This document shows positions 4,227 through 28,971 of a stretch of 62,707 bases of DNA, piece after piece. A program made the position numbers and the translations under genes. Numbering within the stretch: position 1 is the stretch's first letter; each line of letters starts with the position of its first letter. The notes below the pieces were generated by a model. The model saw only the letters and a program-made list of their open reading frames with translations. It did not search any database and was not told where the DNA came from. The stretch covers positions 1-62,707 of IMG/VR virus record IMGVR_UViG_3300033134_000003. One strand, given 5' to 3'. This DNA comes from a virus (lineage: Duplodnaviria; Caudoviricetes).

Positions 4227-4641
4227 TGATGGCGCGCTGCTCGGCGATCTTCGCTTTCAAGGCCTCGTAACGCTCCTTCGCGCCGGCCTCACCGTCGAGC
4301 AACTCGCGCACCACGCGCGGTTGCACATCGCGCTCGAGGCGCAGGATCTCCGCGATCGCCCGCGACCGGCTGTCCCTGGCGGCCGCGACGGAGGGCTTGA
4401 GCACCCAGCGCTTCGTGCCCGCATCCCATTCGTGATCCGCGCTCGGGGCTGGCGGCTGGTAGCTCACGACCTTCCCGGTTGCGACGTCGACGCGCTGGGA
4501 GAGCCGGTCGTAGGTGCCTTCGAGGGCGACATGCTCGGGCGGAGTTTGCCGCTCGAGGATCCCCGGCCTATCAACATCAGTCTTGAACCAGTCGGGGTGA
4601 AACTCCCCGCTCTGCCGGTGATAGAAGTGAAAGCGCCTCAC
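4189..4641 (-). CDS. Tail fibre assembly chaperone-like protein
   Basis: PPAPSADHEWDAGTKRWVL motif; GTGA overlap with the tail tip gene. Confidence 0.6.
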   Translation of the reverse strand: MRRFHFYHRQSGEFHPDWFKTDVDRPGILERQTPPEHVALEGTYDRLSQRVDVATGKVVSYQPPAPSADHEWDAGTKRWVLKPSVAAARDSRSRAIAEILRLERDVQPRVVRELLDGEAGAKERYEALKAKIAEQRAIITSASAAPARTE

Positions 4642-7600: not shown

Positions 7601-8231
7601 TGTTGGCGGAGGAGCCGAAGATGTACTCCTGCGAGGCCACGTACGCGATGCCGTCGTAGGGGATCTCCTGGCCCGCAGGCGTCCCCGAGGGATACCCGGA
7701 CCAGGTCGGCTGCCCTCCTCGCATCGCAGTCCCCGAGGCGACCGTCTGCGAGGGAGACACCGTCCAGGAAGTCCCGCTCCCTGCGGTGATCGTGGTGTTC
7801 GCGGCAACGCCTGGGCCCGTGATGTACTGCCCGACGTACATCGAGCCGCCGAGGATCTTTGAGACCGAAAGCGTCGTGCCGGAGATGCCGGCAACGAAAG
7901 AGGCGCTCCCGAGCGCAAGTGCGAGATTCTCGTACGTGAGCGTGACGAGGGACTTGTCCTGCCAGACCTGGCCGACGCCTTGGATGGGCCCGAGGCAGAG
8001 GGCTGCGATCCACGAGGCGGAGTAGGTGTAGGAGCTGACCGGGGAGCCGCCTTTGCCGCCGTCGTGATTCGGGGATGAGTTGAAGTTGCCGTACCAGATG
8101 AGGTTCATCGGCACGCGGTTGCGGCCCGCGACGTAGGGGATGGTCTGCCCCATCATCGAGGTCGAAACCTGAATGCCGGCGTATCGCTCGGGCTCTGGAT
8201 TCGAGCCGCCCCCGCCGAACATTGCGCCCAT
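4638..8231 (-). CDS. Tail tip / host-specificity protein (J-like, Phage-tail_3 type)
   Basis: 1197 aa; IPYVAG...NLIWYGNF, MPNLNFEVEG, LEPMD, YLRRGLYG motifs; follows the DUF2163 and NlpC genes. Confidence 0.85.
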   Translation of the reverse strand: MGAMFGGGGSNPEPERYAGIQVSTSMMGQTIPYVAGRNRVPMNLIWYGNFNSSPNHDGGKGGSPVSSYTYSASWIAALCLGPIQGVGQVWQDKSLVTLTYENLALALGSASFVAGISGTTLSVSKILGGSMYVGQYITGPGVAANTTITAGSGTSWTVSPSQTVASGTAMRGGQPTWSGYPSGTPAGQEIPYDGIAYVASQEYIFGSSANMPNLNFEVEGCVPGFSDADGVYDADPSAVVIDYLTDPVHGAAFQGTIDPNLQGTTNTYQAYCMSIGVLLSPYEDNQRSATDFMRELLQCTNSDLVMSCGMLRIVPYADQPVSGTVAGTAFSYTPDLTPIYAFTDSDFCPKDGEEPLQLDRKAPTDTYNIVNLTYYDRSNYYNPAPATADNNWDISIRGPKAMSTLDFQSVTQASVAKTVAQLILQFQLYERNTYTARVRADYCLLEPMDYVSVTEPAFGLSGQVCRVIEVEDDDNDFVNLKLMKVPGVVRSTPQYNWTASQGYYANYDAVPPSVATPAIFVMPPVPASIGNGLGEGITVGIAACPSSVSASWGWCSVWCSVDGGSTYFQVGTIGQVGPARYGTITAALPAVADPDTTSTLSILLEDTNLQLAAVTDADANAMQTLILVDSGTNAEVMAYGDATLTGAGAYNLTYLRRGLYGSNPPKAHSSGAQFVRLDGAIFQQTFDPGMAGQTVYFKFVSVNAVGQQPQELSAVTAYAYTIPQGAINGAAQLIPRGNASLTAQGELYATGGSAWSSDCVSSQPYRSLSLSAQYSSGTAAVGLVSSVPTLPATLDPATNMDFALFANLLSGSSGHWEIFESGSLVATLNPPVHGDAALLTYDGFYVRYYLNGALLRTSARDQSALYVGLALDPAASFSNVETGPLTAVTPTQWITINGCAVNDTTATRTASTATWDAGAFASIGYPTCHISGKTNHASDAWQIGLATSANVSAAAATAVGNNAIWQLANYSWINQLGTWEICEAGTVVGSYGSVALTDVAAVTYDGSTITYLLNGVSQRTVSVSGLTLFGLCALQSVGSGVNSLSFGPTTNLKVNDTAELGTNAATETYVQAFSSSAGASAGNLSSGLTIGPYPYPVTVVVTMTGSASYGGSAGSQAYFDYANSDVSGSLSGGGHTISQLVDVDSAGNSYATIAAEDTFSLAANTTTTYYLVGQRQPPTGVAGVAASGVIKCEVIKR

Positions 8232-8669
8232 CTAGAGCACCGACCAAAAGCTATGCTCGCGTGGCTCGAATTGCCTGCGGTCCGAGCGCGTCACGCAGTG
8301 CGCATACTTGTACGCGTGCACGATCGCGTGAGCATCGAGAATGATGGCCCCGTGCGCCGCATGGCGCCCGAAGTTGTACATGATGACATCCCCGGTAGTT
8401 GCGGCCTGCTTGGTGATCTGGCGCGCGTAACGCTCGAGCGTGCGCAGGAACCGCGGCTCGTCGCGATGCAAGAACCACTGCGGGGAGTAGTGCTCGGGCT
8501 CGAAGGCCTCGATCAGCGTCGCCTCTGAGAAGACCCCGATCAGGTAATTCGCGCAGTCCACTCCTGCGCCCTTCACGCGCTGATTATCGTGGAAAGGAGT
8601 TCCGAGCCAGGAGAGCGCCGCAGCCTTGATCCTTTGCCGGACGGATGCGTCCTCATAGCGCGCGAGCAT
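8232..8669 (-). CDS. NlpC/P60 tail assembly peptidase (K-like)
   Basis: WLGTPFH...GVDCA...HGAI...HA; AAAGGAG RBS before ATG 8669. Confidence 0.85.
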   Translation of the reverse strand: MLARYEDASVRQRIKAAALSWLGTPFHDNQRVKGAGVDCANYLIGVFSEATLIEAFEPEHYSPQWFLHRDEPRFLRTLERYARQITKQAATTGDVIMYNFGRHAAHGAIILDAHAIVHAYKYAHCVTRSDRRQFEPREHSFWSVL

Positions 8670-8706
8670 GGGCGCCTCTCCTTTCAGTTCGTCCGCCGAA
8701 AAAACA

Positions 8707-9045
8707 TCATCGAGCCTCGCCCGGCGGGACACCGCCATTGCCAACGAACCCGTGCCACCCGCAACCGCCCTTCAGCCACACCGAGGAGCTCCCCGCGTAG
8801 AGCGAAAGATCGTTGAGTCCGGTGCCTCGATGATTCCAGCGTCCGGGCCCCGGAGAGATGTGCGCCGGTACGTGCGGCTTCCAGCAAATGACGATGTGGG
8901 TCCCGACCGCGCCACCGTTTTCCGCGAAGCACTTCGGACAAAGGAACATGAGCCCGTCACAATCCTCGAAGCTCGCATCCGTGCGGAAGCTCCCGCGATC
9001 ATCCGTGAGCTTGATGAATCTCGCCTCAAGCTCGGAGAGCCTCAT
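8707..9045 (-). CDS. Conserved phage hypothetical protein (Cys/His/Trp motif)
   Basis: MFLCPKC...RW...GCGWHGFV; ATGA overlap. Confidence 0.65.
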   Translation of the reverse strand: MRLSELEARFIKLTDDRGSFRTDASFEDCDGLMFLCPKCFAENGGAVGTHIVICWKPHVPAHISPGPGRWNHRGTGLNDLSLYAGSSSVWLKGGCGWHGFVGNGGVPPGEAR

Positions 9046-10091
9046 GTCTTGTACGGCGGATAGGTCGCCGTCCCGCTCGGCAGGCTCCCGATGATGAGCC
9101 CCGCTTGAGAACCGGTCGGCTGCTGCGGAGGCGCCTGCGTATCTCCATCGACGATGGTCGAGGGGTCCGGGATGTAGGGCTGGCCGCCGAATCGGCGCAG
9201 GTTGTTGAACTTCGTCGTGCAGGTCGCCTGCTGAAGATCGCAGCCCGGATAGATCGAGAACGTGTCCCCGACCGCAGGAGGCACCGGGAATGGGAAGTTC
9301 ATGATGATCGCGCCGGATGCGTTGAGGTAGCTCGAGACGTTCTGCGCGAAGGCGCTGTTCGCCCCACTCGTGAAGGTGAGGACGCCGAGGTCGAAGTACC
9401 CGTCCGCCGCGGTGAGGTTGGTCGAGAAGGAATACCCGCCGGCGGACCCGGAGGCGACCGCCGTCACCTCACCTGTCACCGTGAACGCGGATTTGAGAAG
9501 CCCGCAGCCGGCATCGTAGACCTGGTGATAGCAGCCGACCCCGTAGAGCTGCCGCGGCATGTTCTGCGAGCCAAGAAGCGCAAGGTAGTCATCGATCGTG
9601 AGCTCCGCCTTCAGCCGCCCGGCCTGCACGCCCTGCACCTGGCCCACGAGCCACCCAACAGCACCCGGTGAGGTGTCCGGGAAATTGGCACCCCCCGTTA
9701 CGGCCCGGTTCATGAAGAGCTTCGACATGCGAAAGAACGCATTATCGAAGAACCCGAGGTCGCAGGCCTGAAGGAACGGGTAGCCGTTGATGAGGATCGG
9801 CGCGCTGGGCGAGTCGGCCTGCGGGGCAACGGTGAGCTTCAAATTGCCGGCCTCGGTGCCGGCTTTCTGCGTGATGGTCCCGCGCTTGATCGTGAGCCCG
9901 GTCCCGAAGGTGTACGGTCCGACCGGCGATGAGCCCTGCGGAGGCAGATAGATCTCGCAGGACAGGGCCACATCGAAGCTCGTGAAGCGATAGGTCTGCC
10001 CCGTTGCGAGCGTGAACTCGAAAAGCTCGGCGACCTGATAGAGCCCGCTCTGCAGGACGCTGAGCGTTGCCGAGGAGGCGTACGTTTTCAC
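9042..10091 (-). CDS. Minor tail / hub protein, DUF2163/BR0599 family
   Basis: C-terminal YPGCDLQQATCTTKFNNLRRFGGQPYIP. Confidence 0.85.
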   Translation of the reverse strand: MKTYASSATLSVLQSGLYQVAELFEFTLATGQTYRFTSFDVALSCEIYLPPQGSSPVGPYTFGTGLTIKRGTITQKAGTEAGNLKLTVAPQADSPSAPILINGYPFLQACDLGFFDNAFFRMSKLFMNRAVTGGANFPDTSPGAVGWLVGQVQGVQAGRLKAELTIDDYLALLGSQNMPRQLYGVGCYHQVYDAGCGLLKSAFTVTGEVTAVASGSAGGYSFSTNLTAADGYFDLGVLTFTSGANSAFAQNVSSYLNASGAIIMNFPFPVPPAVGDTFSIYPGCDLQQATCTTKFNNLRRFGGQPYIPDPSTIVDGDTQAPPQQPTGSQAGLIIGSLPSGTATYPPYKT

Positions 10092-10744
10092 AACGTCACC
10101 GAGGTGAACGACAGCTTCTCAGCGCTCCAAAGTCCGTACATCATCTTCTTCCAATCGTACTTGTCCTCGTCGAACCGGCAGCGGTAGTACCAGCTGCCCG
10201 ACCAGGTGAGCGTCACCCCGGAGGCCGGCGCATAGCCCGACCCGAACGTCACGATGCCGGTCGAACCGATCGAGTACTCGCTCGATGGGATCGCCGTGCC
10301 ATTCGCATAGAGGATGGGCGTTCCATTCAAATTCTGGATGAGCTCGGGCTGGCCTGGGCCGCCTGAGTTCTGGTAGGTCGCCGTGAGCTGAAAGGCGAGC
10401 TGCGACCCCGTACCGTACCCGAAGGTTCCGAACTTCGTCGCCTGTGCACCGGGATCGATCGTGTTGAAATCAGGATCGGTGTGCAGGAACGTGTCCCAAC
10501 GTCCGTGCACCGCATTGAAGAGCCCCACGATCGCGGTGATATCGGGAGCGCCCGTGGTGAACTCTGACTCTCCGTCGCGCAGGAACTCGAATGAATACTC
10601 AAACTGCACGAGCGGGAACGCTCGGAATGCGACGGTCGAAACCTTGCCCGAGAGCGCCTGCTGATAGCCCGTGTTCCAGAGGTAGCGCCGGACATAGTCG
10701 AACTGAATCCCCGGAAGCGTGTACGGGAAGACGTAACTGCTCAC
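10088..10744 (-). CDS. Distal tail protein, DUF2460 family
   Basis: FNAVHGRWDTFLHTDP, LTWSGSWYYRCRFDED; follows the tape measure gene. Confidence 0.8.
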   Translation of the reverse strand: MSSYVFPYTLPGIQFDYVRRYLWNTGYQQALSGKVSTVAFRAFPLVQFEYSFEFLRDGESEFTTGAPDITAIVGLFNAVHGRWDTFLHTDPDFNTIDPGAQATKFGTFGYGTGSQLAFQLTATYQNSGGPGQPELIQNLNGTPILYANGTAIPSSEYSIGSTGIVTFGSGYAPASGVTLTWSGSWYYRCRFDEDKYDWKKMMYGLWSAEKLSFTSVTL

Positions 10745-13575
10745 CCTCGCCCCCCGCGCCCGAAGTGGCTACCGATCGCCCTCACGATGGAGCCTCGACC
10801 ATCCGGGCTCTGGAGCCAAGATTTCAGGCCCGTGAGGTCATGGGCCTGGAGCGAGATGTTCCAATTGTGCGTGTCGCCTCCCCCGCCGATCCCGGATGCG
10901 AGGCCAGCACCCGAGAGAGAGCCAGACTGACGAATGCCCTCGGCGAACGTCGCAGGCACGACCATCTCGCCTTGGTGGATCTGGGCCACCATGTCCTGCG
11001 GCACGCTCCAGGCGCCCACATCAAGGGATGCGAGCGACTGGTAGGCGGCAACCGCCGCAAACGCCGCTGCGGCCGCGGCGGGGGCCAATATCCAACCGAC
11101 GTAGGGGATCTGAGCGACGCTCGCGTACGTCCCGGAGAAGGCCTTGGCGGCATCTGCGAGCACCGTCTGGGCGCCGGCCGCCGTCGATGCCGCCTTCGAG
11201 GCCGCGGCGCCCGAGGCGGTGGCTGCGGTGCGGGCGGCGTTGCCCGTGACCACGGCTGCCGTCTGGGCTTGCTGAGAGGCCGCGGTGGCGGCGGTCGCCT
11301 GATTGCTCATGAGGAGGTGATAGAGGAACCCGCCCTGCTCGAGCGCCTTCTGCTGCGTCTGGGCGGTGTCTGCGAGCAGGATCCGGGTCGTCATGGCCTT
11401 GATGTCGTCGGCGATCTCCTTGGTCACGAGTTGCGATGAGATCTGCAGCAGCGACTGGGAGAGGGACCGGCGCCGGCTGATGAGATCCGAGACCAGCGTG
11501 CTCTCGGCCCCCTCGATCTCATTGACGGCGGACTTCCAGCCGGCCGCATCCTGCTGAGCGGCCTTGCGGGAGGCCTCGGCCGCCTCCCGGTCGAGCTGGG
11601 CGAGGTCGAGCACCTCCTTCGCCTTCAGCTCCCGGATCTGGTTGAACACGCGGTCGTACTCGACCGGGAGCTGCTTTAGCGTGTCGAGCTCGTTCTGGAG
11701 ACGCTGCAGGTCGAGCGCGTACTCCTGCTGCGTGAGGTTGCGCAGGAGCGCGTACTTTGCGGCCGCTACCCCCTGTTCGTTGGCGATGGAGGCCTGGAGC
11801 GTCTGTTTCTCCGCCTCGACCTTCGTGCGTGCGATCGAGATGTCCGTGTCAACGTCCTGGCGAGCGATCGCTGAGCTTTCCGATGCGCGCTCGCGGTTCA
11901 GCTCCGCGATCGACTGGTTGAGCGAGCGCTGCACCTCGATGCGCTGAGCAGCGGTGAGGGAGTCGCCGGCGAGAAGGGTGCGCCAGACCTCGGCTTCGGC
12001 TGCGAGGCGCTGAGTCGCCCCCTGGCTCGTGGCCGCCGAGATCTGTGAGACCTGCTCGCGGGCCTGGGAGATAGCCTGCGACCCTGCGGCCTGGCGCACC
12101 TGGACCTCGAGCCGCGCGATCTCGGACTCGACCTCGAGGCGATCCTTTGCGCTCGATGAGACCTGCGCGAGAGTCGCCTGCGCCACGGCCTGCTGCTTGG
12201 CGAGAAGCCCCGCCTGAGTGCCGTCCCAGGTCGATGCGAGCTCGGACATCTGCTCGCGCATGCGCTCGATGACCGGCCCGAACTGCAGGCTCGAGAGTTC
12301 CGTGCGCGCCTTGTCGAGCCCTGCGTTCAGCTTGTCGATCGAGAGCTGGTCGCCCTGCTGCTTTGCGACCGCAAGCGCTGCGGTCATCTCCGCGATCTTG
12401 GATCTCGCCTCCTCGGCTTGCTGGGAAACGGGATTTTCTTTCTGTGCGACCTCGACGCCTGTCTTGAGCGTCTGGTTCGGATCGGGCGGTGTTGCCATGA
12501 GCGCGCTCGAGCGCTCACGAATCGCCTGTGCCTCCTGGTTGATGCGCGCGGTGCGCTCGGCGGTCAGGTCCGAGCTCACCTGCGCAACCGACGTGCCGGC
12601 GCTCACGTCCGCAAAATAGATTAGCGCCGAGCGCGCACTCTCGAGCCACCCTTGCGCATGCTGGGCGAGGAGCGGGCGCGCGGACTGCAGCGCCGCATCG
12701 AGTAAAGTGATCTTCTCGGCGGCGATCTCGTTCGCGTTGCCGCTTTGATCCGCCGCGCGCGCGGCGTTGATCATCTCTTGGGACAGGTTGAGCGTCTGGG
12801 CGAGGGTCTGAGCGGACTCGCGAGGCTCGAAGAATTTCGCAAGCGACTCGGCCGCCTTATCTGCTGCCTCGCCCGTCACCTGCATGTACTGGGAGACCGC
12901 CGGGGCGAGCGCGCTCATCATCTGGGAGGTCATGCCGGGCACGCGCCCGAGGGTCTCTGCGATCTTCGTGGCGCTCGAGGCAGAGATGACCCCGGCGCGC
13001 TCGATCTCATCCGTGAACTCTTTGACCGATGTTGATGAGATGTCGAGGTTCCCGAAGAACCTCGCCGAGGCTGCGGCCTTGTCGATAGCCTCGGCGGTCT
13101 CGATCGAGCGATAGGTGAGGTAGGCGAGGCCCCCGACCAGAGCCGTGACGCCGGCGAGTGCGCCCAGCGCGGCCGGGGAGAGCCCGAGCACCCGCTGAGC
13201 GATGATCGCAAGCGTGCCCGGGGTCATGCGTGTGCGTCCCGATGAAAGCTCGTCAAACAGCGCGCGAAACTCGCGGGTCGCGGTTGAGATGGAGCCGTGC
13301 ATCTCCTCGCTCGAGCGCGAAAATCCAGAGGCGCTGAAGCCTGCGGCCGCAAGGGCGGCCGAGTAGCCTTGCGCCTGGGTCTTCGCCTGCAGGAGGTCTG
13401 CGGCAAGCTGCTGCATCCTCGCCTGCCCCGCCGAGTCGATCGTCCCGCTCGCCGAGGCCCGCGCGAGCTTGTTGAGCTCGCTCGAGAGGCTCTGCGTTTC
13501 GGCACGAGCCACAGCGAACTTGGTCTGCATATCGACCACATCGGCTGTGACCTTGACGGAGAGATTCGACGGCAC
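10741..13575 (-). CDS. Tail tape measure protein
   Basis: 944 aa, Ala/Gln-rich helical; C-terminal IPYVGWILAP and IHQGEMVVPA. Confidence 0.9.
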   Translation of the reverse strand: MPSNLSVKVTADVVDMQTKFAVARAETQSLSSELNKLARASASGTIDSAGQARMQQLAADLLQAKTQAQGYSAALAAAGFSASGFSRSSEEMHGSISTATREFRALFDELSSGRTRMTPGTLAIIAQRVLGLSPAALGALAGVTALVGGLAYLTYRSIETAEAIDKAAASARFFGNLDISSTSVKEFTDEIERAGVISASSATKIAETLGRVPGMTSQMMSALAPAVSQYMQVTGEAADKAAESLAKFFEPRESAQTLAQTLNLSQEMINAARAADQSGNANEIAAEKITLLDAALQSARPLLAQHAQGWLESARSALIYFADVSAGTSVAQVSSDLTAERTARINQEAQAIRERSSALMATPPDPNQTLKTGVEVAQKENPVSQQAEEARSKIAEMTAALAVAKQQGDQLSIDKLNAGLDKARTELSSLQFGPVIERMREQMSELASTWDGTQAGLLAKQQAVAQATLAQVSSSAKDRLEVESEIARLEVQVRQAAGSQAISQAREQVSQISAATSQGATQRLAAEAEVWRTLLAGDSLTAAQRIEVQRSLNQSIAELNRERASESSAIARQDVDTDISIARTKVEAEKQTLQASIANEQGVAAAKYALLRNLTQQEYALDLQRLQNELDTLKQLPVEYDRVFNQIRELKAKEVLDLAQLDREAAEASRKAAQQDAAGWKSAVNEIEGAESTLVSDLISRRRSLSQSLLQISSQLVTKEIADDIKAMTTRILLADTAQTQQKALEQGGFLYHLLMSNQATAATAASQQAQTAAVVTGNAARTAATASGAAASKAASTAAGAQTVLADAAKAFSGTYASVAQIPYVGWILAPAAAAAAFAAVAAYQSLASLDVGAWSVPQDMVAQIHQGEMVVPATFAEGIRQSGSLSGAGLASGIGGGGDTHNWNISLQAHDLTGLKSWLQSPDGRGSIVRAIGSHFGRGGRG

Positions 13576-14511: not shown

Positions 14512-15381
14512 CTATGCCTGCGTCGCAAGTGCGATGAAGCCGAGCTGCTGGGACGCATTCGCGAAAAATCCGAAGTCATACTCCGGCATCGAGAAATCGG
14601 TGAGCTTGAAGCCCTCCGTCCAGCCGCCGCCCACCGCTGCGAAAAGCCGCATGTAGTAGATCGACCCATACAGCACGTTCATGTAGTCGAGCTGGAAGGT
14701 CGGGGTCTGGCCGATCAGCGGATTATTGATCGTGATGGTCTGGCCGGCTGCGTTGGTGAAGCTGTAAGAGAAGCTGATGTTCACCGAGAGCCCGGCGGTG
14801 TGGTCGGCCGAGGAAAAGGTGTACGCGCCAGCGGATTGCGTGTATTGGCCGGCGGCCGGGGTTCCAGACGGGATGAAGGTGAGCGGCTCGCCGCTCGTGT
14901 ACACGACGCCCAGATCGCTGTTGAACACGCCAGAGCTCGGAATCGTCGGGGTGATCTGGTACGGCGTTGCGGGGATCAGGGTGAGCCCGGTCTGCGTGAG
15001 ACCGTACTGCGTGCCGGTAACGACCGAGGTGCCCGTCCCGAAGAGCAGGGCATTCAAGGCCTGCCCCGAGAGGGTCGCCGCCTTGATCTTCCCGGTGCAC
15101 TTGGCCGTGCCGCGCGCGACCACGAGCGGAAGCTGGTTCTGCCCGTAGAGCTCCTTCAGGTCGAACTTGATGTCAGTCGAGAACTCGTTGACATAGCCCA
15201 CGTTGGTAGGCGTTGCGTTCGCGATGTCGGTGCGGGTGAGGTAGAGAATGCCGGGGCCAAAGAGAGCCTGCGGCACAGTGTTGGTGCTTCCCATAGTTAC
15301 TCCAAAAGGTCCAGAGTCAGCGGTGTAGAGGCCAGAGTCAGCTGTGATGCCACCGGAGTCAGCTGTGCCGCCTACTGGCAT
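14512..15381 (-). CDS. Major tail (tube) protein; two possible starts (15381, 15294)
   Basis: FGPG...KELYGQNQLPLVVARG...FKLTDFSMPEYDF; both ATGs have an SD. Confidence 0.85.
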   Translation of the reverse strand: MPVGGTADSGGITADSGLYTADSGPFGVTMGSTNTVPQALFGPGILYLTRTDIANATPTNVGYVNEFSTDIKFDLKELYGQNQLPLVVARGTAKCTGKIKAATLSGQALNALLFGTGTSVVTGTQYGLTQTGLTLIPATPYQITPTIPSSGVFNSDLGVVYTSGEPLTFIPSGTPAAGQYTQSAGAYTFSSADHTAGLSVNISFSYSFTNAAGQTITINNPLIGQTPTFQLDYMNVLYGSIYYMRLFAAVGGGWTEGFKLTDFSMPEYDFGFFANASQQLGFIALATQA

Positions 15382-15460
15382 TTCTTTGGGACCTCCGGTG
15401 ATCGAAGAAAACGAGAGCCACCGCCTGCGCGGCAGCTCACCAACATCGAAAGGCTTGCGC

Positions 15461-16069
15461 TTACGGCGAGCTGGACGAGCTCGACGCGCTCACCGTGTGC
15501 CACACGATCTGCGATGACACGCCCGTCGGCGCTGCAGGAGCCGCGGGGCCGCTCGGGGCGCTCGAGCTCGATGAGGACGAGGAGTTGCTGCTTGAGCTTC
15601 CGGGGACGAGCTGAGAGGTCAGCGCGGACGGAACAGAAGTTCCGATTGAGTTCGACGCGGTGACGTACCACCAATATTGAGTCCCCGGCACGAGCGGACC
15701 TGCGGTGTAGGTGCAGCACTGCACGCCCGGCGGGGATTCAGCAGCGAATGCAATGACCGCCTGCCCAGCGACCGTGCTCCAGAAGATCTGATAGGTGGGG
15801 GCGGAGGTGAGCGGGTTGCCGTTGGCATCGGTCGTGGGCGCGTTCCACGAGATGATCGCGTAGGGCGTGCCGCTGCTGCTTGAGGACGAGGAGCTGCTGG
15901 AGCTCGCTGAGCTCGACGCGCTGCTCGATACACTGCCGCTCGAGGACGATGACACGCTGCCGGAGGATGCCTGTGCAAAGGCGGGATCGCCTCCGCCCAT
16001 CATGCTGACGGCGAGTATTGCTACGGCCACCATCGCTGCGGCCAGGAACCAAGGTGCAAAGCGTTTCAT
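15461..16069 (-). CDS. Secreted Ser-rich fibronectin type III protein
   Basis: Signal peptide ending AFA|Q; ISWNAPT...YQIFW...YWWYVTASNSIG FN3 pattern; poly-Ser linkers; AAGGAG RBS. Confidence 0.75.
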   Translation of the reverse strand: MKRFAPWFLAAAMVAVAILAVSMMGGGDPAFAQASSGSVSSSSSGSVSSSASSSASSSSSSSSSSSGTPYAIISWNAPTTDANGNPLTSAPTYQIFWSTVAGQAVIAFAAESPPGVQCCTYTAGPLVPGTQYWWYVTASNSIGTSVPSALTSQLVPGSSSSNSSSSSSSSAPSGPAAPAAPTGVSSQIVWHTVSASSSSSSP

Positions 16070-16084
16070 GATCGACTCCTTTCT

Positions 16085-17201
16085 TTGGAGCTCCCCCGGC
16101 AGGAATGGGAGCGCAGTTCCAGTGCTACAATTTGCTTGTGATCCTGACTTACCGCTATCGCATCAAGACCACCTCCGGTGCAAGGCTTGCGCTCGATGCG
16201 ATGGCACGGGCTGCGAACCTCGTATGGAACTTCTGTGGCGAGACGCAAGAGGCGGCGCGGAGATGGAATAGACGGTGGCCGACCGGCTTCGATCTGATCG
16301 GGCTGACAAATGGGAGCTCGCGCGCGCTCGGCCTGCATTCCGATACGGTGCAGGCAGTATGCAAGCAGTTCGCCGTGTCCCGCGACGAAGCGGAACGCCG
16401 GCCACGCTGGCGTGGCAAGAAGTCCCTCGGATGGGTGCCCTTCCAGGCTGCTCGGGCCATTCGGCTCGACGGCGATGCCATTGTCTTCCTCAAGCGCCGT
16501 TATCGTCTCTGGCTGCACCGGCCGATAGACGGTGAGATCAAATCCGGTAGCTTCTGCGCGGATGCGCGCGGCCGCTGGTACGTGAATCTGCAGGTCGAGG
16601 TCGAGACTGATACGGCCTGCGGATCCGGCGAGGTCGGCATAGACCTGGGACTCAAAACGCTCGCCGCGATCTCGACAGGAGATAGGATCGAAAATCCGCG
16701 TCATCTGGACCGATACGCGCAAAAGCTCGCGACGGCACATCGTGCCGGCAATGCCAAGCGCGCCCGCGCGATACACGCCAAGATCGTCAACTGTCGCAGA
16801 CATTTCCTGCATGAGCGCTCGTCGCAGCTCGTGCGCGATAACCGGCGCATCGTCGTCGGCAACGTCAATGCAAGCGGCCTCGCCAGGACCAGCATGGCGA
16901 AATCCGTTCTCGATGCCAGCTGGTCGCAGTTTCGATTCCAGCTCCGCTACAAAGCCATCAGGCACGGGGCCGAGTACATTGAAGCTGATGAGCGATTCAC
17001 AACCCAAGTGTGTTCTGGCTGTGGTGCAGTCAGCGGCCCCAAAGGTATCGAACATCTTGGAGTAAGAGATTGGGTCTGTTGCGAGTGCGGTGCTTGTCAT
17101 GATCGTGATATCAACTCCGCCATCAACATCCTCGTCTCGGGCCGGAAAGTCGGCCTCCGGTTGACGGGAAACGACCGGCTTTAGCCGGTGGATAGCTTTA
17201 C
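16085..17201 (+). mobile_element. Non-autonomous IS200/IS605-family element (tnpB only)
   Basis: tnpB followed by a right-end hairpin ACCGGCTTTAGCCGGT; GCTCCC...GGGAGC hairpin upstream; no tnpA; boundaries approximate. Confidence 0.65.
16138..17184 (+). CDS. tnpB: RNA-guided endonuclease TnpB (rearranged RuvC-II)
   Basis: TYRYRIK, VGIDLGLKTLA, IVVGNV, DERFTTQVCSGC, CCEC, HDRDINSAINI. Confidence 0.92.
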   Translation: MILTYRYRIKTTSGARLALDAMARAANLVWNFCGETQEAARRWNRRWPTGFDLIGLTNGSSRALGLHSDTVQAVCKQFAVSRDEAERRPRWRGKKSLGWVPFQAARAIRLDGDAIVFLKRRYRLWLHRPIDGEIKSGSFCADARGRWYVNLQVEVETDTACGSGEVGIDLGLKTLAAISTGDRIENPRHLDRYAQKLATAHRAGNAKRARAIHAKIVNCRRHFLHERSSQLVRDNRRIVVGNVNASGLARTSMAKSVLDASWSQFRFQLRYKAIRHGAEYIEADERFTTQVCSGCGAVSGPKGIEHLGVRDWVCCECGACHDRDINSAINILVSGRKVGLRLTGNDRL

Positions 17202-19429
17202 GCTGCCTCCTGCAAGTTGTAGTGGTCATCGTTCGCCGCGCGAATCGGCTGATTGCGGCGGTCGAGCCAGGCATCCGAGAGCGAGGTGATGGGCACTACT
17301 TGCCATTCCTCCACGAGGATCGTCTGGCTGTCCGAAGGTCCTACGATCGCTGCGTATAAGATCCCGCCCACTGGGTCATATGTCATCCAGCTAATGCCGG
17401 GTGCCACAAAGCACCCACTGATAGATGCCGGGAAATTTGCATAGCCTGGGAAGTCCGCAAACGCATAAGGGCTGGCTGCGTACAGCGGGCTCGATCCCTG
17501 TTCTTGCGCCAGGAGGGTCTGCAAATCGTAGAGATTCACCTGCACGTTGTTGTAGTAGGTCGTGTCTGGCGTTACTGGTATTTCGTTAGAGGCACTGGCC
17601 CCGTTGCCGCACTGGCCACTGATCGGCCTTGCGCGTGAGGGGCCGTACTGGTGGCGGCTTATGACCGCAAGACTGCGGCTGCCAGGCACGATGAGGGCAG
17701 TACCAAACGGACCGTCGTATTCGCTTAGGAAGTTATCTCCAAGCGGCGCGATCGTGACCGCCGTGGAGCAACTCGGAGAGCACAGGAGAGGAGTGTTCGT
17801 GCAGGTCCCACTGCTGCAACCGGTGAGCGTTGCAAAGACCGTGAACGGGGAGGATGGGATTGCGGTGCTAAGCTCAGAGATCTGAGCTACCCGAGTTTCA
17901 CCGTCGCTAAAGGTGATCAGATAGGGAGTGTCAACATGCGCGGAAAAAGAATCCAGCAGGTAGGTGTCGCCTGAAGTTGGTGACGTTGCGAAGTTACACG
18001 TGATCGTCATCGTGGCCGTACTGCCCGAAGTCACGGCTGTGCTCGCCTCTACGCCGCACCCATACGCAGTGTGTGTTTCGTCGGCAAAATTCGCATAGAT
18101 CCAGTAATTCGCCCCCCAACTCTCAGGCCATCCACCGGTGGGCGCATTGAGCACAATCGAAGTGCCACTGACGCTGGCCACCGTGGAACTGGTGTTGTAG
18201 AAGCCGGTGACATTGTTTTGCGGAAACGGAGCGGAGAGAGTTACCGAGGTAGCCCCGCTTGCAGGCGCGGAGGCGAGCGTGTATGCCCCTATCGTTGGCG
18301 CGCTTGTGGGGAACGGTCCGGCAAAGGATCGGTAGGATAATTGCTCGGGGAACCCAGGCTCGCGATAGAGCCCCTGGTACGAATAGGCGAGGAACTGACT
18401 GAGTGGGACTGACGCGCCAGAAAAGCTCGCATTGGCTTGACTGAACGTCGCGAAGTTGAACCCCGGAGGTACATAGCAGCTGTCGATCGAAAGCCCAGCT
18501 CCTACCGCAACGAATGCCGTTCCGCCCAGAGTGGCCTGCCACAGACTTGGGATGGGCGCGATGGTGCCAGCGAATTGGCGATTGGATTGCGTGCTCACGC
18601 CCTGCACTGTATTGACCGTGCCCCAACTTGACGGGTTCGAGGTCAGCGGGAGCGTTACCGGCAGCAACCACCCCAATTGCTGATTACAGTTCGCGTCATA
18701 GTACGTGCCGCCCGTCAGATAGAGCGTGCTGCCGGAAACCATCGCTCCCGTAATCCTGAAACCGCTGGCGGCGCCCCAAGGGGCTGCCGGATACCATTGG
18801 TGCACAGATACCGTAGTGCTATACCCGCTGCCGGTGAGCGCAGCACCCCACGAGAAGGTGTCTCCAGTCAGCCCAGTGACTAGCTCATCCGGAGAGTTCG
18901 AACCGCTGAACTTCACGTACCAACCCGCATTCGCGGCAAATCCCGCGGGTAAGCTAGTCAGTGTCGCGCTCGTGTCCCCCGTCATCGGGGTAGAAGCCAC
19001 GCTGTAATTGCTCGGCGCCACTATCTGCGTCGAAAAGACCGGCACTTGCGTGACGGTCGCAGTTCCATTGGTGCCTGAATAATTTGGGGTCCCGGAGAGC
19101 GTGGGCAACGTGATCGTCCCCATCCCCCCGATGATGTAATTATTCGTGTCGTAAGGATCGTAAGCGTCGCTCGCGAGATACATGGTCGAACCGGATACGG
19201 TGAGAGCTCCCGCGTAGTAGTTGAACCCGGTGGAGCTTCCCTTTGGGATCGTAAACGATCCCAAGAAATTGAAAATTGAGCTCAGATCGCTGGTCTGCAC
19301 GAGCGGCAGCGACAGCGGACTGCCCGAGGCCGCCCCGCGCCCGTGGTGCGCATCAGCCTGCGGGCCGCCTGCAATGAGCAGGAGGCAGGCGAGCGCGAGG
19401 GCGGAGGCGATTCGGACGATGTATTTCAT
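17198..19429 (-). CDS. Large secreted beta-rich protein (adhesin/fibre-like)
   Basis: Start at an ATGA overlap; signal peptide ending ADA|HHGRG; Ser/Thr/Gly-rich. Confidence 0.75.
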   Translation of the reverse strand: MKYIVRIASALALACLLLIAGGPQADAHHGRGAASGSPLSLPLVQTSDLSSIFNFLGSFTIPKGSSTGFNYYAGALTVSGSTMYLASDAYDPYDTNNYIIGGMGTITLPTLSGTPNYSGTNGTATVTQVPVFSTQIVAPSNYSVASTPMTGDTSATLTSLPAGFAANAGWYVKFSGSNSPDELVTGLTGDTFSWGAALTGSGYSTTVSVHQWYPAAPWGAASGFRITGAMVSGSTLYLTGGTYYDANCNQQLGWLLPVTLPLTSNPSSWGTVNTVQGVSTQSNRQFAGTIAPIPSLWQATLGGTAFVAVGAGLSIDSCYVPPGFNFATFSQANASFSGASVPLSQFLAYSYQGLYREPGFPEQLSYRSFAGPFPTSAPTIGAYTLASAPASGATSVTLSAPFPQNNVTGFYNTSSTVASVSGTSIVLNAPTGGWPESWGANYWIYANFADETHTAYGCGVEASTAVTSGSTATMTITCNFATSPTSGDTYLLDSFSAHVDTPYLITFSDGETRVAQISELSTAIPSSPFTVFATLTGCSSGTCTNTPLLCSPSCSTAVTIAPLGDNFLSEYDGPFGTALIVPGSRSLAVISRHQYGPSRARPISGQCGNGASASNEIPVTPDTTYYNNVQVNLYDLQTLLAQEQGSSPLYAASPYAFADFPGYANFPASISGCFVAPGISWMTYDPVGGILYAAIVGPSDSQTILVEEWQVVPITSLSDAWLDRRNQPIRAANDDHYNLQEAA

Positions 19430-21663
19430 GGCAGCGTGCACGTGGGCATCTTGCCCTGCTGGAAGCAGTACATGGCGGGTAGCGTGTAGGTGTTCCCTGT
19501 GGTGGGGTCCACCCACGGCCAGGTCTGGCCCTGGAAGAATGCAGGGGCGGAGGCGAGGTAGAAGGAGCTGGGGAGCGTGACGCCGCTGCATCCGAGGTCC
19601 GTTGTCCCTCCCGTCCCGTAGCAGTGCTCGGCGCTCGTGTTCCAGTCCCAGTTCGCCGTGCGGGTCTGGGTATTGACCGTGCAGTTGTCGAACGTCCAGT
19701 TGCCGCCGGTCTGCGATCCCTCGCTGGCGCAGTCCGAGAACGTGAAGCTGCCGCTGGTGTTGACGCTTGCCTGGTAGGCGCCGAGCTGCCAGACGGGGAC
19801 CTTATTGCCGGTCGCGAGTCCGTTGTACTGCGTCTCCGTCGTGACCTGCAATACCCACGCCGTCTGCGCCCCCTCGTCGCACCCTGAGGGCTCGGTGAGC
19901 AACTGCTGCCCGCTCATCCCCAGCACATTCCCGACGATGTTATGGTTGAAGCTGTAGGCCTGGATGTCGACCGCCGCGCGGGCGCCTCCCACGTAGTCGC
20001 CGTAGTCGTGCGTGCAGTCGCTCGTGTAGGTGTAGGTGTTGAGGGGCGCATGCGCCGCGCGGTGCGCGGTCAGCCAGTTACGGAAGGCAGTGATGAAAAT
20101 GCTATTGCCCCAGTACGTGTCCCCCTTGTAGTTCTGGCTGTAGTTTCCCTCCAACAGCTCGAGGTGCGATGTGGTGAGATGCGCGGCGTTGATCCCAGCC
20201 TCGGGGCTGTCCGGGTACGTCTCGCCGAAAGCGTCGTCGGTATAGTTGTAGGCGAACACGTTGCCGCCTCCCGCCGCGCGCATCACCACCACTTTGTTGC
20301 CGTACCAAGAGATGTTGTTCTCGATCAGGTCCTCCGCCGACCCGCCGTCGATCGCGATCTGGTAGCCGGCGCCTCCCGGGCTCGGGTTGTCCGTCTCGTG
20401 GATGAACGAGTCGCGCAGCACGTTGCGGAAGGTGCCGGCGAGCTCGATGCTGGGGTTGTTGGTCCAGGTGGACTCCACATTCTTCACCCAGCAGTACGCG
20501 CACTGCCCGATGGAGATGTTGCCCGCGCCGCCCCACGTGAAGAGGTTCTCGATGCCCACGCCCTTGATCCACGGGTTGGGGTAGGTGGTGAGCTTGGCCG
20601 AGTAGGCGGTGTGGTACGGGTAGGTGATCGGTGTGTCGAAGGTGACGGTATCACCACTCACCGAGGCCACTTCCATCACATCGGCAAGGCTCGAATCCAC
20701 AACGCGCATGCCGTAGCCGATCTCGTTGTACGAGCCCCCAAATGACGGTCCCCAGACGACGTTAGGATCGCTCGTTGTAAGTTCGTCGAGCCACACAATG
20801 CTGCCGGGCGACAACCCGCTGGGCGCACTCGTAAGCGTGATGCTGTAGGCTCCCTGCACGGCATCCGAGGCGAGCGTATAGGACGTGTTCCACTCGTTGT
20901 CGCCCGAGGTGTAAACGTGGATTGGCACGTCGGCCTCGTCCGTCGCGCGGTCCGACTTGATGATCTGCGTGGCCGTGCTGTCGGTGCAGAAGCTGCCGTC
21001 GCCGTACGTGGTGAGCGTGCCGCTGGCGCAGCTGCGCGCCGTGCCGCCGCCGCCCACCTTGTTGAGGCCGGTGCTGAGCTGCTGCCCGGGGCCGGAGCCG
21101 CGCAGCGTGCAGCCTGAGTTCGTGATCGTGATACCGCCGCCCGAGACGTGATAGACGCCGGTATTGAGCAGCACCACTTCGCCATTCGGACAATTTGAGA
21201 GCGCGGTCGTGATTGCGGACGTATCGTCCCCACCGCTCGGAGACAGCGTCGTGTAGATTGTCGTGCGATTGGGGATGCCCGCAGCCGTCATCGTCTCGCT
21301 CGAGATCGCGACTGATGGAGCAGGGGAAACAGTGTACGTCCCGGTGCCACCACTGCCACTGCCAAAGGCGGTTATTGTGGTACCGCTCGGCACCCCAGTA
21401 CCGCTTAGTACCTCGCTGGGGCCCAACGCGTTGGATGGCGAATAGGTGACCGTCATCGTGCCGCTGGTTGCGATTGAAGCCGTGAGCGGCATGGCGTTCA
21501 TGCCGGCGACTTTCCAGTTGGCCCAGCCGTCTGAAGCTGCTGCGATGAGCCCCGAGGTAGGATCGGCATTCGCACTGGCCGCCGCGCCTCGGCCGTGATG
21601 CGCAATGACAGCGGCGGGCAGCAACACACCGCACAGCAGGAGGACGAGTGCTCTCAAACGCAT
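19426..21663 (-). CDS. Secreted pectate-lyase-like right-handed beta-helix protein (tailspike/depolymerase-like)
   Basis: Signal peptide ending VIA|HHGRG; GGDDTSAITTAL...VVLLNTGVY...TLRGSG beta-helix cap; repeated IENN-type rungs. Confidence 0.75.
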   Translation of the reverse strand: MRLRALVLLLCGVLLPAAVIAHHGRGAAASANADPTSGLIAAASDGWANWKVAGMNAMPLTASIATSGTMTVTYSPSNALGPSEVLSGTGVPSGTTITAFGSGSGGTGTYTVSPAPSVAISSETMTAAGIPNRTTIYTTLSPSGGDDTSAITTALSNCPNGEVVLLNTGVYHVSGGGITITNSGCTLRGSGPGQQLSTGLNKVGGGGTARSCASGTLTTYGDGSFCTDSTATQIIKSDRATDEADVPIHVYTSGDNEWNTSYTLASDAVQGAYSITLTSAPSGLSPGSIVWLDELTTSDPNVVWGPSFGGSYNEIGYGMRVVDSSLADVMEVASVSGDTVTFDTPITYPYHTAYSAKLTTYPNPWIKGVGIENLFTWGGAGNISIGQCAYCWVKNVESTWTNNPSIELAGTFRNVLRDSFIHETDNPSPGGAGYQIAIDGGSAEDLIENNISWYGNKVVVMRAAGGGNVFAYNYTDDAFGETYPDSPEAGINAAHLTTSHLELLEGNYSQNYKGDTYWGNSIFITAFRNWLTAHRAAHAPLNTYTYTSDCTHDYGDYVGGARAAVDIQAYSFNHNIVGNVLGMSGQQLLTEPSGCDEGAQTAWVLQVTTETQYNGLATGNKVPVWQLGAYQASVNTSGSFTFSDCASEGSQTGGNWTFDNCTVNTQTRTANWDWNTSAEHCYGTGGTTDLGCSGVTLPSSFYLASAPAFFQGQTWPWVDPTTGNTYTLPAMYCFQQGKMPTCTLP

Positions 21664-23492
21664 CAGTGAAACGCCGCCGCAAGGCCACCGCAGGTTGTGC
21701 CGGTACCGGCGATTGTCCACGTCCAGCTCTGCGCGGTGGTACTCGAATAATTGTAGAACGCATGAGCATCGCCAAAGGCCAGGTGCTCACCGTCGCTTTG
21801 CCCTGTGAACTGGGGTACCGCGTAGACGAGTCCGGAGGGTGCTGTGGCGCCATTGGCCGGACCGTTCCCAACGCCTACCATTGCAAGAGTCAATCCGGGC
21901 GCGGAAGACGGCGTTATGCTCGGGTCCGCTGCGATTGACCCTGTAGAGCAACTCAGAGCGGCATCCGCCTCGTTGAGATACGATGACGATGATGCATTGA
22001 TTACGTCGTAGAACTTGCCGGCCGTATTGGCGAGCGCCGTGCCGCTGTGCAGCGGAAATGTGATCGTGCAATTCGAGCACGGGCTGCAATTTTGCGCGTA
22101 ATAGACGTAGGTGCCGGTGTTGGCGCCGGTCACCTGGGTGAAGTTACACCCGTCTGAGCTGGTCACCGTGCCGTTCGCGGTATCCCAGGACCCGTTACCG
22201 TTCACGGCTTCAAACATGAAGACGCGCAGATTGCCGAGCGAGGAAAATGGAATCGAAAACGACGATGGCAGGTTCGGGCTACCGAAATTGTCAGTCGTCA
22301 ACTGCTGCGTCTGGACCACATGGATGCTGGTCGGATAGGCGATCCCAGCGGCCCCGATCTGAAGGGCCACTGTTAACGAATTGAATGGATCGCCGTTGCC
22401 GCTAGAACAAGTCTCCCCGGCCATCGTGACCGATGCTGAGACAGCGGCGGCCGTCAGCTGAGTTTCCGTCTGCATGACGCTCTGGAAGCCATAGCCATCG
22501 CCGTTGATCCAGTCGGAGGTGTTGCCGCCGAAGCGCTCGAAGCCGCTTGCGGGCGTGTAGCCGCTTGCGTTGCACGCAGGGGAATTTGTCCCCGTCGCAA
22601 GCGCCGTGTAGTTGTAGATTAGGTTCCCGTTCGAGTTGCTAGTCGGAGTGAAGCTCGTCGGAGTCACCGTGCCCGCGGTACTCGCGAGTCCCGCCTGGCA
22701 ATTGTGTCCCTGCGCGGTGGCTGAGGCGATGTTGTTGTACTCGGTAAGAACGTAATTGAATTCCGTGAATGACGCACTGAAGGCGATCTTGAACCAGGTA
22801 ACGCCAGCTGTCGGCGCAATCACGTAAAGGTAGCTCAGCCCATTCGTTGAGCCGTTGTCAGCGGAGCATACTGCGGCCGGGATCGTATCGCTTGCGCTGT
22901 CGGTAATGCTGGAGACCGTATCCCCGCTCACGCCAGTGAATGCCAGCACAACTATGTCGCCCGAGCCGGTCGGCTGCACATTGAGCTGGTAGTTATTGCC
23001 AGCCGGCTGGCCGCTGCCGGCAGAACTGGTGGCCGTATCCCAATGCTGCACAATCTCCGGGGCGTCATTGAGTACGCACGTGATGGTGATTGCCTGGGTG
23101 TAGGGAGAACCATAGGCGTACTGGTCAGTGGCGACCACGTTGATGTTGTTTATGACCGTTGTGCTGGAGCAGGTCGGTGTTGAGCCGTTTGTGGTAATGA
23201 CGCCAGTGGATGAGTTGATCGTAAACTCGCCGGCGTTACTTCCAGACAGTGCATAAGTGCCCGAGAACGCCGCGGTACTGGTGCCCGTCACTAGACCAGC
23301 CGCGGTCCCAACAACGGTCCCTGAGGATGATCCCGTGACGTAGTCATACGAAGTCGGCGCCACGCTCACGAGGTTCAGCACGTTCTGCGCGGTGTACGGT
23401 CTCCCCAGCGGAATCGGCATCAACTGCGCGAGATGCGCCCAGGCGATTCCAGCGGCAGCAAGAGCAATGAGCAGGGGAGCAAGGCGTTTCAT
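21663..23492 (-). CDS. Secreted protein with a cadherin-like domain
   Basis: Signal peptide ending AWA|H; GTVVGT...FTINSSTGVITT cadherin-like pattern; TGATG coupling. Confidence 0.7.
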   Translation of the reverse strand: MKRLAPLLIALAAAGIAWAHLAQLMPIPLGRPYTAQNVLNLVSVAPTSYDYVTGSSSGTVVGTAAGLVTGTSTAAFSGTYALSGSNAGEFTINSSTGVITTNGSTPTCSSTTVINNINVVATDQYAYGSPYTQAITITCVLNDAPEIVQHWDTATSSAGSGQPAGNNYQLNVQPTGSGDIVVLAFTGVSGDTVSSITDSASDTIPAAVCSADNGSTNGLSYLYVIAPTAGVTWFKIAFSASFTEFNYVLTEYNNIASATAQGHNCQAGLASTAGTVTPTSFTPTSNSNGNLIYNYTALATGTNSPACNASGYTPASGFERFGGNTSDWINGDGYGFQSVMQTETQLTAAAVSASVTMAGETCSSGNGDPFNSLTVALQIGAAGIAYPTSIHVVQTQQLTTDNFGSPNLPSSFSIPFSSLGNLRVFMFEAVNGNGSWDTANGTVTSSDGCNFTQVTGANTGTYVYYAQNCSPCSNCTITFPLHSGTALANTAGKFYDVINASSSSYLNEADAALSCSTGSIAADPSITPSSAPGLTLAMVGVGNGPANGATAPSGLVYAVPQFTGQSDGEHLAFGDAHAFYNYSSTTAQSWTWTIAGTGTTCGGLAAAFH

Positions 23493-27793: not shown

Positions 27794-27804
27794 TGATGCT
27801 CCTT

Positions 27805-28470: not shown

Positions 28471-28971
28471 TCATGCGACATCGCCCCCCTGCGCGGCCGC
28501 CTGGGCGATCGCCTCCTCGAGTTGCGCCCGGATCTCCGGTTCCATTTGAGCGAATGGCCCGCGCAGGTACTCAAACGCCGCGATATGCACGGGCTTGGTG
28601 AGCCTTGCGAGAACGCGCCGGCGTTGACCGCCGAGGCGCGCAAGGGCGCCGGCGCGCTCGAAGATCTTGCGCGCCTTGTTGGAACCGTATTCGAGCGTCG
28701 CAGCTTTCGCGTATTCGCCGGCGATCCCTGGGGCGAACACGGCCACGTACCCCGCAACGCGCTCGGGGTTGTCCGTGAAGGTGCGCCCGCGGATCTCGCT
28801 CCTCAAGCGTCCAGTCCGGACCGGAGCTGCGACCTCGACGCGCCCCTCGAGCTCCTCGGTGATCTGATCGATGCGTGCAGCGAGTTGCCGGCGCGCAAAG
28901 GCCGGGAAGCGATCGAACCTCGCCTCGAGCTCGCGGTCCCCGTCGAGCCGCACGGACATGATCGGCATCAT
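28471..28971 (-). CDS. HK97 gp10-like tail component
   Basis: APVRTGRLRSEI, LEYGS, YLRGPF. Confidence 0.75.
   Translation of the reverse strand: MMPIMSVRLDGDRELEARFDRFPAFARRQLAARIDQITEELEGRVEVAAPVRTGRLRSEIRGRTFTDNPERVAGYVAVFAPGIAGEYAKAATLEYGSNKARKIFERAGALARLGGQRRRVLARLTKPVHIAAFEYLRGPFAQMEPEIRAQLEEAIAQAAAQGGDVA

Follow-up and report, generated by a model that had tools for sequence, protein, structure and literature searches.

Two in-frame starts in the predicted tail tube gene

The DNA analysed here (the window) is the whole 62,707-nt stretch of virus record IMGVR_UViG_3300033134_000003 (Duplodnaviria; Caudoviricetes), a linear record of 62.7 kb with a CheckV completeness of 100%. Profile annotation with Pfam and PHROG places a siphophage structural module on its minus strand. 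Our subject is the tail tube gene of this module, whose 5' end holds two in-frame start codons and a repetitive extension, together with a large fibre-like protein, encoded upstream, that we propose as the docking partner of this extension. The features of the tube gene are as follows.

14512-15381, minus strand: tail tube gene, long form, 289 aa (assigned from fold and gene order)
15392-15396, minus strand: Shine-Dalgarno (SD) sequence GGAGG of the long-form start (read from the sequence), 10-nt spacer to the ATG
15379-15381, minus strand: long-form ATG (289 aa)
15295-15381, minus strand: 29-codon N-terminal extension, MPVGG-TADSGGI-TADSGLY-TADSG-PFGVT
15316-15366, minus strand: three T-A-D units with spacings of 7 and 7 residues, the proposed docking peptide
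15300-15303, minus strand: internal SD sequence GGAG, within codons Gly27-Val28, 5-nt spacer
15292-15294, minus strand: internal ATG, in frame with 15381; short-form start (260 aa) and ancestral start of the family
14512-15294, minus strand: tail tube body (short form, 260 aa; AlphaFold2 and Foldseek)

The spacer of the long-form start measures 9 nt if the SD motif is taken as GGAGGT and 10 nt if it is taken as GGAGG. An earlier reading made from the sequence alone (the original prediction) had called two in-frame ATG codons at 15381 and 15294, each preceded by an SD sequence, and a 29-aa extension with three TADS repeats. Both ATG codons and their SD sequences were confirmed from the sequence, and the extension (MPVGGTADSGGITADSGLYTADSGPFGVT) has exactly the residues given there.

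Judged from its modelled fold and from gene order, the product of 14512-15381 is a siphophage tail tube protein. The AlphaFold2 model, built on 50 aligned sequences, has a mean predicted local distance difference test score (pLDDT) of 84.7, with residues 1-39 disordered (pLDDT <50). Foldseek gave 21 matches at E ≤ 0.001, and those at the top are solved siphophage tail tube proteins, including 8xkn_B (2e-11), the SPR tube protein 8ygm_A, YSD1 6xgr_A, Chi 8vhx and JBD30 8rk3_f. In gene order it follows the head-tail joining genes and precedes those for the chaperone and the tape measure protein, as in 39 related loci.

The middle of the tube protein (14700-15020, residues ~121-230) resembles parts of other virion genes in relatives at 38-51% identity (L012:15316-15543, L034:771-1034, L037:951-1154 and L038:3964-4206) and may represent a shared decoration domain. 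A match to PF07880 within residues 172-227 of the tube body falls below the cut-off (E 0.0022).

Evidence that the extension is coding sequence

A search with the tube protein returned 913 relatives, the best 120 of which were listed (119 without the window's own protein). Seven of the 119 listed relatives carry the extension; they are 290-293 aa long and begin with a tryptophan-led T[AF]D triplet (W-T[AF]D three times, in TADS or TFDD variants). The other listed relatives are 256-266 aa long and start at the position of the internal Met. In these short-form relatives the reading frame is interrupted by a stop a few codons before the start, so that the extension is truly absent there. The source database itself lists the window's tube protein (P0001) in its 260-aa form.

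Comparison of the window with its relative L010 (63% identical) shows that the nine codons specifying the T, A and D residues comprise three identical and six synonymous positions, with no non-synonymous change, and that the spacer residues between the units differ. On this evidence the extension is a translated coding sequence, not a leader. When T-A-D is written as a degenerate DNA pattern occurring three times, every 21 nt, the window has a single match (15316-15366, minus strand) and 100 dinucleotide-preserving shuffles of it have none. A looser six-frame peptide search of the window likewise found a triple T[AF]D at the tube N-terminus only.

A metagenome scan with the long-form N-termini produced no further long-form tube; it returned nine short forms and five other carriers of the motif. 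Among cultured phages, tube relatives are found at 32-34% identity only (seven records), none with the extension.

The internal start

Short-form relatives have GGAG, AAGG, AGGA or GAGG 5-10 nt before their ATG. In all three long forms for which DNA was at hand (window, L010 and L032), GGAG or AGGAG stands 5-8 nt before the ancestral Met. This internal SD is always made of a GGA glycine codon followed by a codon starting with G, within neighbouring residues that differ (FGVT, SGAS and TGVKP), and Gly27 is invariant in the nine long forms. Since GGA makes up 9.5%, 14.7% and 10.2% of the glycine codons in the three genomes, its presence at all three sites has a chance probability of ~0.0014 if the cases are independent, which the window and L010 are not. 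RNA of the start region is no more stable than shuffled sequence (z +1.15) and offers no occluding structure. The retention of the internal GGAG in the three long forms makes use of both starts plausible, and it is reasonable to infer that the choice of start site would set the number of tube subunits that carry a fibre.

The triple motif in other phages

Three [ST]-[AF]-D units about 7 residues apart define the motif, which was given the working name triple T[AF]D docking peptide; no curated family was found for it. Two scans of viral contigs for a triple TAD or a triple TFD, with the units 7 residues apart, gave at least 119 and at least 120 stretches. Removal of 20 perfect DNA repeats left 213 open reading frames (ORFs) with the motif in 161 distinct sequence contexts; these and the following counts refer to the matches listed. 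Neighbouring genes were scored with a hidden Markov model (HMM) of gp10-like "anchor" N-termini of the type MAKQTINIGxxANDGTGDxLRxxxxKINxNFxELY. Compared with solved structures, a profile of 29 anchor N-termini retrieves T4-type entries only (gp10, 2e-14; gp9, 1.6e-7), and in cultured phages the anchor occurs mostly in T4-like genomes, where it is annotated as gp9 or gp10 (1786 records).

When the motif is C-terminal, the next gene matches the anchor HMM in 65 of 70 distinct cases, a figure that describes the sample and is partly circular since the model was seeded from the loci scored. The background is 107 of 4126 ORFs in the motif loci and one of 3719 ORFs in the tube-relative loci. With the motif in an internal position (78 carriers), the anchor is in the next gene in five cases and on the same strand within 2-kb flanks in eight. 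The 13 carriers with an N-terminal motif, the window's type, include six with a same-strand anchor within 2-kb flanks. The idea that triple T(A/F)D repeats occur beside proteins with gp9-like N-termini, which the original prediction mentioned, was tested by these scans and holds.

The carriers are varied. They range from gp7-like baseplate wedge proteins and J-like central fibre proteins to a Pam3 gp18-like plug; L107 has the motif on a distal tail protein of the gene transfer agent (GTA) type and L192 on a Phage_tail_2 tube protein, and further carriers are stand-alone proteins of 48-74 aa. The latter (in L039, L043, L049, L061, L062, L173, L230 and other loci) have a variable N-terminus and a C-terminal triple motif; each precedes an anchor-bearing fibre gene and none scores above Pfam cut-offs. 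They look like dedicated fibre adaptors. A blastn search with one such locus found no match in the phage collection. Taken together, these sequence comparisons indicate that the triple T[AF]D is a common phage virion module tied to gp9/gp10-like N-termini.

Separately, a Leu-type variant of the motif, WSLDGLATLDSSNTLDGGG, is found at L032:3961-4005, in the gene before a tail terminator-like gene.

Co-variation of peptide and anchor

Among the matches listed, 74 unique carrier-anchor pairs were compared. Where the peptide is of the TAD type, the anchor has Phe three residues after its conserved Arg (LRtAF) in 31/31 pairs. Where it is of the TFD type, Gly or Ala occupies that position (LRaGa) in 43/43, of which 40 were scored by script and three by eye. 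Clustering the anchors at 80% identity gives 35 clusters, nine TAD/aromatic and 26 TFD/small, with none discordant; at 65% identity, one cluster contains both concordant states. A large residue on one side facing a small one on the other is what direct contact predicts. The window obeys the rule, combining a TAD peptide with a Phe-type anchor (PLWQAF), and the pair in L290, described below, joins TAD to PLWKAY.

The fibre-like protein and its anchor

The proposed partner in the window has the following features.

23492-27793, minus strand: 1433-aa fibre-like protein, proposed docking partner; starts at ATG 27793
27722-27793, minus strand: Sec-type signal-peptide-like N-terminus, followed by QQ (judged by eye)
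27584-27664, minus strand: gp9/gp10-like anchor motif of the Phe type (PLWQAF), residues 44-70 (Phe-type HMM)

The gp9-like motif, which the original prediction had placed at about 27594-27671, is present at 27584-27664 (ANTGTGYPLWQAFGFINNDLGELFNIN). It contains the core N-x-G-T-G-x-P-L-x-x-A-F-x-x-x-N-x-[ND]-[FL]-x-E-L near the mature N-terminus and aligns with canonical anchors without gaps. Across all six-frame ORFs of the window, a home-made HMM of the Phe-type anchor gives the fibre an E of 1e-4, the next best being 3.3. An AlphaFold2 monomer of the N-terminal piece has a low mean pLDDT (63.7), with a helix over the motif (residues 29-50 of the piece). Complex prediction with three fibre pieces (127 aa) and tube residues 1-40 returned scores of 0.73, 0.00 and 0.00, with a median below the mark and controls that did not fold; by the rule of the tool it counts neither way.

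Ahead of the anchor, the fibre has what looks like a Sec-type signal peptide (MRTLRKGLLLAGLAALLHLSPAHA), which the original prediction had not noted; judged by eye, it consists of a basic MRTLRKG, a hydrophobic LLLAGLAALLHLSP (LLLAGLAALL core) and AHA, then QQ. An exhaustive search with the first 180 residues of the fibre found 79 relatives, and at least 20 cluster representatives share the same layout: a signal peptide, A-x-A then Q, C-x6-7-C and GTGDPxWxAFGKxNxN. Predicted cleavage at A-x-A would create an N-terminus that aligns with residue 1-2 of anchors without a signal peptide. Such a segment would complicate a simple cytoplasmic assembly.

An inserted cassette accompanies the extension

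Comparison of the window with related tube loci delimits an insert directly upstream of the tube gene.

27805-28470, minus strand: conserved 221-aa gene, phrog_8150, directly before the tube gene in relatives
15382-27804, both strands: 12.4-kb insert between the 27805-28470 gene and the tube gene (comparison with 39 related loci)
16105-17184, plus strand: TnpB-type gene within the cassette (OrfB_IS605 and Cas12f1-like TNB domain)
23421-23492, ~21580-21666, ~19350-19432 and 15980-16069, minus strand: signal-like N-termini of the other insert genes

Besides the fibre and the TnpB element, the insert encodes a small fn3-like protein and three other large proteins. All five cassette proteins (TnpB apart) begin with signal-peptide-like segments. 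In the 39 related loci, the homologue of the 27805-28470 gene ends 12-341 nt before a short tube gene; the extension occurs in 0/39, and no homologue of the insert genes was found there. The three loci that have the extension (window, L010 and L032) all lack this adjacency and all have signal-peptide-like proteins upstream of the tube gene. In L010, a 312-aa protein that begins with a signal-like segment is encoded within the 1.2 kb of sequence upstream. In the more distant L032 (39% identity), a triple TFD is followed by two Ig-like domains and then the tube, and upstream lie two signal-peptide-like proteins and a gp10-like anchor protein. L009 shows neither adjacency nor extension, and nothing recognisable was found in the gap between its genes. 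In this survey four further loci had too little upstream sequence and one was without a full tube match.

Two other loci show the same elements on different carriers. L290, with a different phage backbone, encodes a 124-aa protein with nine TADSG units (L290:9914-10288), and the product of the next gene, 620 aa long, has a signal peptide and an anchor in homology with the window fibre (47% identity, 2e-6). Having three triple sets, the 124-aa protein might accommodate three fibres together. The carrier in L291 is a gpI-like baseplate protein that begins with W-TADS three times, and tail fibre genes with signal-like N-termini follow. The tail-fibre PHROG matches at L291:9493-10620 begin only after the signal-like segment.

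A short motif following the signal-like segment is shared by two insert proteins (AHHGRGAAAS and AHHGRGAAS, minus strand, window ~21560-21600 and ~19320-19360) and a protein of L290 (ARHARGAAAS, L290:12829-14019). In cysteine content, the insert proteins are not distinct from the other proteins of the virion.

Other features of the window

The remaining annotated genes are listed here.

36993-40007, minus strand: large terminase with intein (Pfam)
35361-36818, minus strand: portal
33229-35364, minus strand: protease-like protein
31782-33140, minus strand: major capsid protein
27805-29900, minus strand: head-tail joining genes
10741-13575, minus strand: tape measure gene, 944 aa; the tube gene lies just upstream
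4638-10744, minus strand: GTA-like distal tail (DUF2460, Phage_BR0599 hub, NlpC/P60, Phage-tail_3 with Rcc01698_C)

The intein-like insert of the terminase separates the ATPase parts and has Hom_end and LAGLIDADG_3 matches at residues 368-440 (Pfam). A class 3 lipase-like gene (1066-1836) lies beside the tail genes. A DNA polymerase III beta clamp-like protein and a DUF5131 protein are encoded at 42379-43635 and 44107-44952, respectively.

Relationship to known systems

In phage T4, the gp9 trimer connects the long tail fibre and is bound to a docking loop in domain III of gp7 (residues 258-292), according to a 2026 preprint (bioRxiv 10.64898/2026.03.06.709160); a figure legend of the same source has this loop binding at the N-terminal helices of the connector. 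Binding of the gp9 N-terminal domain to a gp7 domain is also stated in a 2010 review (PMC3004832). Residues 259-279 of T4 gp7 read STDVRW-SADDVRF-SSQDITF, a degenerate triple [ST]xD with aromatic residues in between, and we take the T[AF]D motif to be a likely equivalent of the gp7 docking loop. In both settings one scaffold chain would offer a short loop to the N-terminus of a gp9/gp10-type trimer. The T4 loop is internal, degenerate and displayed by a baseplate wedge protein in six copies, whereas the peptide of the window is terminal, canonical and part of a major tube protein (hundreds of copies) of a non-contractile tail.

Cyanophage S-RIM2 (NC_020859.1) encodes a gp7-like protein with TFD..RFD..TFD at 7-residue spacing, and its next gene, annotated as gp9-like, begins with a Gly-type anchor, as fits the pairing rule. 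It differs from the window in its T4-like baseplate context, in the internal position of the motif and in having neither a signal peptide nor an alternative start. The tube protein of the uncultured L192, assigned to Phage_tail_2 (Pfam 2.5e-7) and to phrog_1407 (major tail protein), has three TFD units at its end, and the gene next to it encodes a gp10-like anchor protein of 206 aa; compared with the window, the tube family is another one, the motif is C-terminal and of the TFD/Gly type, and the partner is small. L107 has a large distal tail protein of the same PHROG as the window's (phrog_1101) that ends in three TAD units and precedes a Phe-type anchor gene. There the docking peptide would sit at the tail tip, the usual site of fibres, and not on the tube as in the window.

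The SPP1 tube mixes a minor longer form (gp17.1*) with the major gp17.1. With lambda gpV and T5 pb6 (Ig-like), it shares with the window the display of extra modules on the tube surface. However, the modules of these three phages are fused folded domains, and the longer SPP1 form arises by frameshifting at the 3' end, whereas the 29-aa peptide added in the window is encoded at the 5' end, would bring in a trimeric protein made separately, and would give two forms through two start codons. The JBD30 paper refers to tube decoration domains in T5 and lambda. Pam3 gp18 was considered as a lead and dropped, since Pam3 fibres are joined to the wedge by disulfide bonds, a different mechanism.

In the open full-text literature, we found neither a triple T[AF]D described as a general fibre plug nor signal peptides on tail fibres. 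Passages from PMC10966104, PMC9509320, PMC10579305, PMC9942802 and PMC11445458 describe neither a T[AF]D plug nor a fibre signal peptide.

A model for fibre docking on the tail tube

We propose that the long form of the tube protein carries a docking peptide for the fibre of the cassette, that peptide and cassette were acquired together, and that the short form is also made, resulting in partial occupancy of the tube; we estimate the probability of this reading at roughly 0.65. According to this model, the three T-A-D heptads would make tube residues 1-29 a docking peptide, flexible and portable, with one heptad binding each subunit of the trimer that the gp9/gp10-like anchor of the 1433-aa fibre would form. 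This mode of binding would match that of the gp9 trimer on the docking loop of T4 gp7. Cassette and peptide were most likely acquired together, the peptide being fused in frame onto the old tube start. Retention of that start with its GGAG suggests that a short, fibre-less subunit is probably made as well. The disc rise of the JBD30 tube, given as 43.2 Å in the JBD30 paper, and the 944-aa tape measure would correspond to roughly 33 discs and ~200 tube subunits, a fraction of which would carry a fibre, so that fibres would attach along the tail. Partial occupancy is favoured since a fibre of 3 x 1433 aa on every subunit seems implausible.

The original prediction had named the extension a candidate docking site for a trimeric fibre, one fibre per three repeats. 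The docking part of that proposal is well supported by the adjacency of motif and anchor in the 65/70 listed cases, the concerted peptide-anchor swap in 74/74 pairs, the T4 precedent and the link between cassette and extension. From these data we infer the physical binding, the ratio of one fibre per peptide, the use of both starts, and where and when the fibre would meet the virion.

Several observations weigh against the model. The window lacks the Trp that precedes the first unit in the other eight long forms, and none of the 13 listed N-terminal carriers has an anchor in the next gene. The fibre gene starts ~12.4 kb upstream of the tube gene on the same strand, unlike the typical pairs, which are adjacent. 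A first, broader anchor HMM scored the fibre at E 0.011 only, significance being reached with the Phe-type model, and the 1433-aa protein matches no Pfam (even at E 0.1) or PHROG family, PF07880 (T4_gp9_10_N) included; the clearer anchor of L032 itself reaches only E 0.015 with PF07880, which indicates that the Pfam model is insensitive to short anchors. A signal peptide on the fibre would mean that its compartment may differ from that of the assembling tail. The partial circularity of the adjacency count was stated above, the co-variation counts are phylogenetically non-independent, and the relatedness of the window and L010 makes the evidence from the retained GGAG thin.

Other explanations can be envisaged. 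The peptide could dock the fibre with only the long form being made; in that case the internal ATG and GGAG would be remnants of a recent fusion, and fibre supply or crowding would set how many fibres are attached. The long start does have the stronger SD (GGAGG), ribosomes arriving from 29 codons upstream would generally be expected to interfere with internal initiation, and the 63% identity of the window and L010 means that shared ancestry could account for the shared GGAG. However, L032, distant in sequence and with two Ig-like domains in between, still has AGGAG before the ancestral Met; Gly27 is invariant and always followed by a residue with G-starting codons; and a full complement of trimeric fibres on all ~200 subunits would probably outweigh the rest of the virion. 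We regard this explanation as unlikely, though a serious competitor. The opposite possibility, that the upstream ATG is unused, that only the 260-aa form is made and that the TADS stretch is an untranslated leader, agrees with the form chosen by the source gene caller (P0001) and with the short length of most relatives. Yet the motif is kept as protein, with only synonymous changes in the T-A-D codons, a strong GGAGG precedes the upstream ATG, the same peptide is found on other virion proteins and the pattern is absent from the 100 shuffles; such a leader appears highly improbable.

Alternatively, the peptide could dock some other partner, or the fibre could dock elsewhere, for instance as an exported protein serving in receptor masking or as a free enzyme. 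The signal-peptide-like N-termini of the fibre and of the four other insert proteins, the separation of the fibre gene from the tube gene and the failure of complex prediction with fibre trimer and peptide to give an answer would be compatible with this. Against it, the window holds exactly one triple T[AF]D site and exactly one anchor-like N-terminus, and the two match under the Ala/Phe rule; in L290, a fibre of the same type, signal peptide included, directly follows a TADSG carrier; and the only known role of such an anchor is attachment to a virion docking loop. These points make a different partnership improbable, although less so than the untranslated leader.

Implications

The principle of plug and socket is already known from T4. 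In the open literature searched, no report was found of its placement at the N-terminus of a siphophage tube protein, of its modular distribution under an Ala/Phe code, or of a signal peptide on the partner. A broader and more speculative reading, which we consider possible but doubtful, is that fibres of this type (at least 20 clusters) are exported by Sec, mature in the periplasm, possibly with disulfide bonds, and join tails built in the cytoplasm through the tube peptides only after holin opening of the inner membrane or lysis, giving tails with long fibres all along them, with the ratio of the two starts setting fibre density and with T[AF]D and anchor forming a universal plug and socket with an Ala/Phe code. 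If true, fibre cassettes would move between siphophage tubes, myophage baseplates and small adaptors.

It is through fibre attachment that phages can exchange modules for host recognition. A plug of 20 residues, carried on a tube, a baseplate or a 50-aa adaptor and read by a one-residue code, would account for the movement of cassettes between unrelated tails. For uncultured phages, the motif would help in assigning fibres to the virion proteins that hold them, and it would provide a handle for grafting fibres in phage engineering. The partner's signal peptide raises the question of where fibres and tails meet. Finally, a major tube protein that serves as the carrier and is diluted by a second start would represent a new means by which a non-contractile tail acquires side fibres and sets their number.

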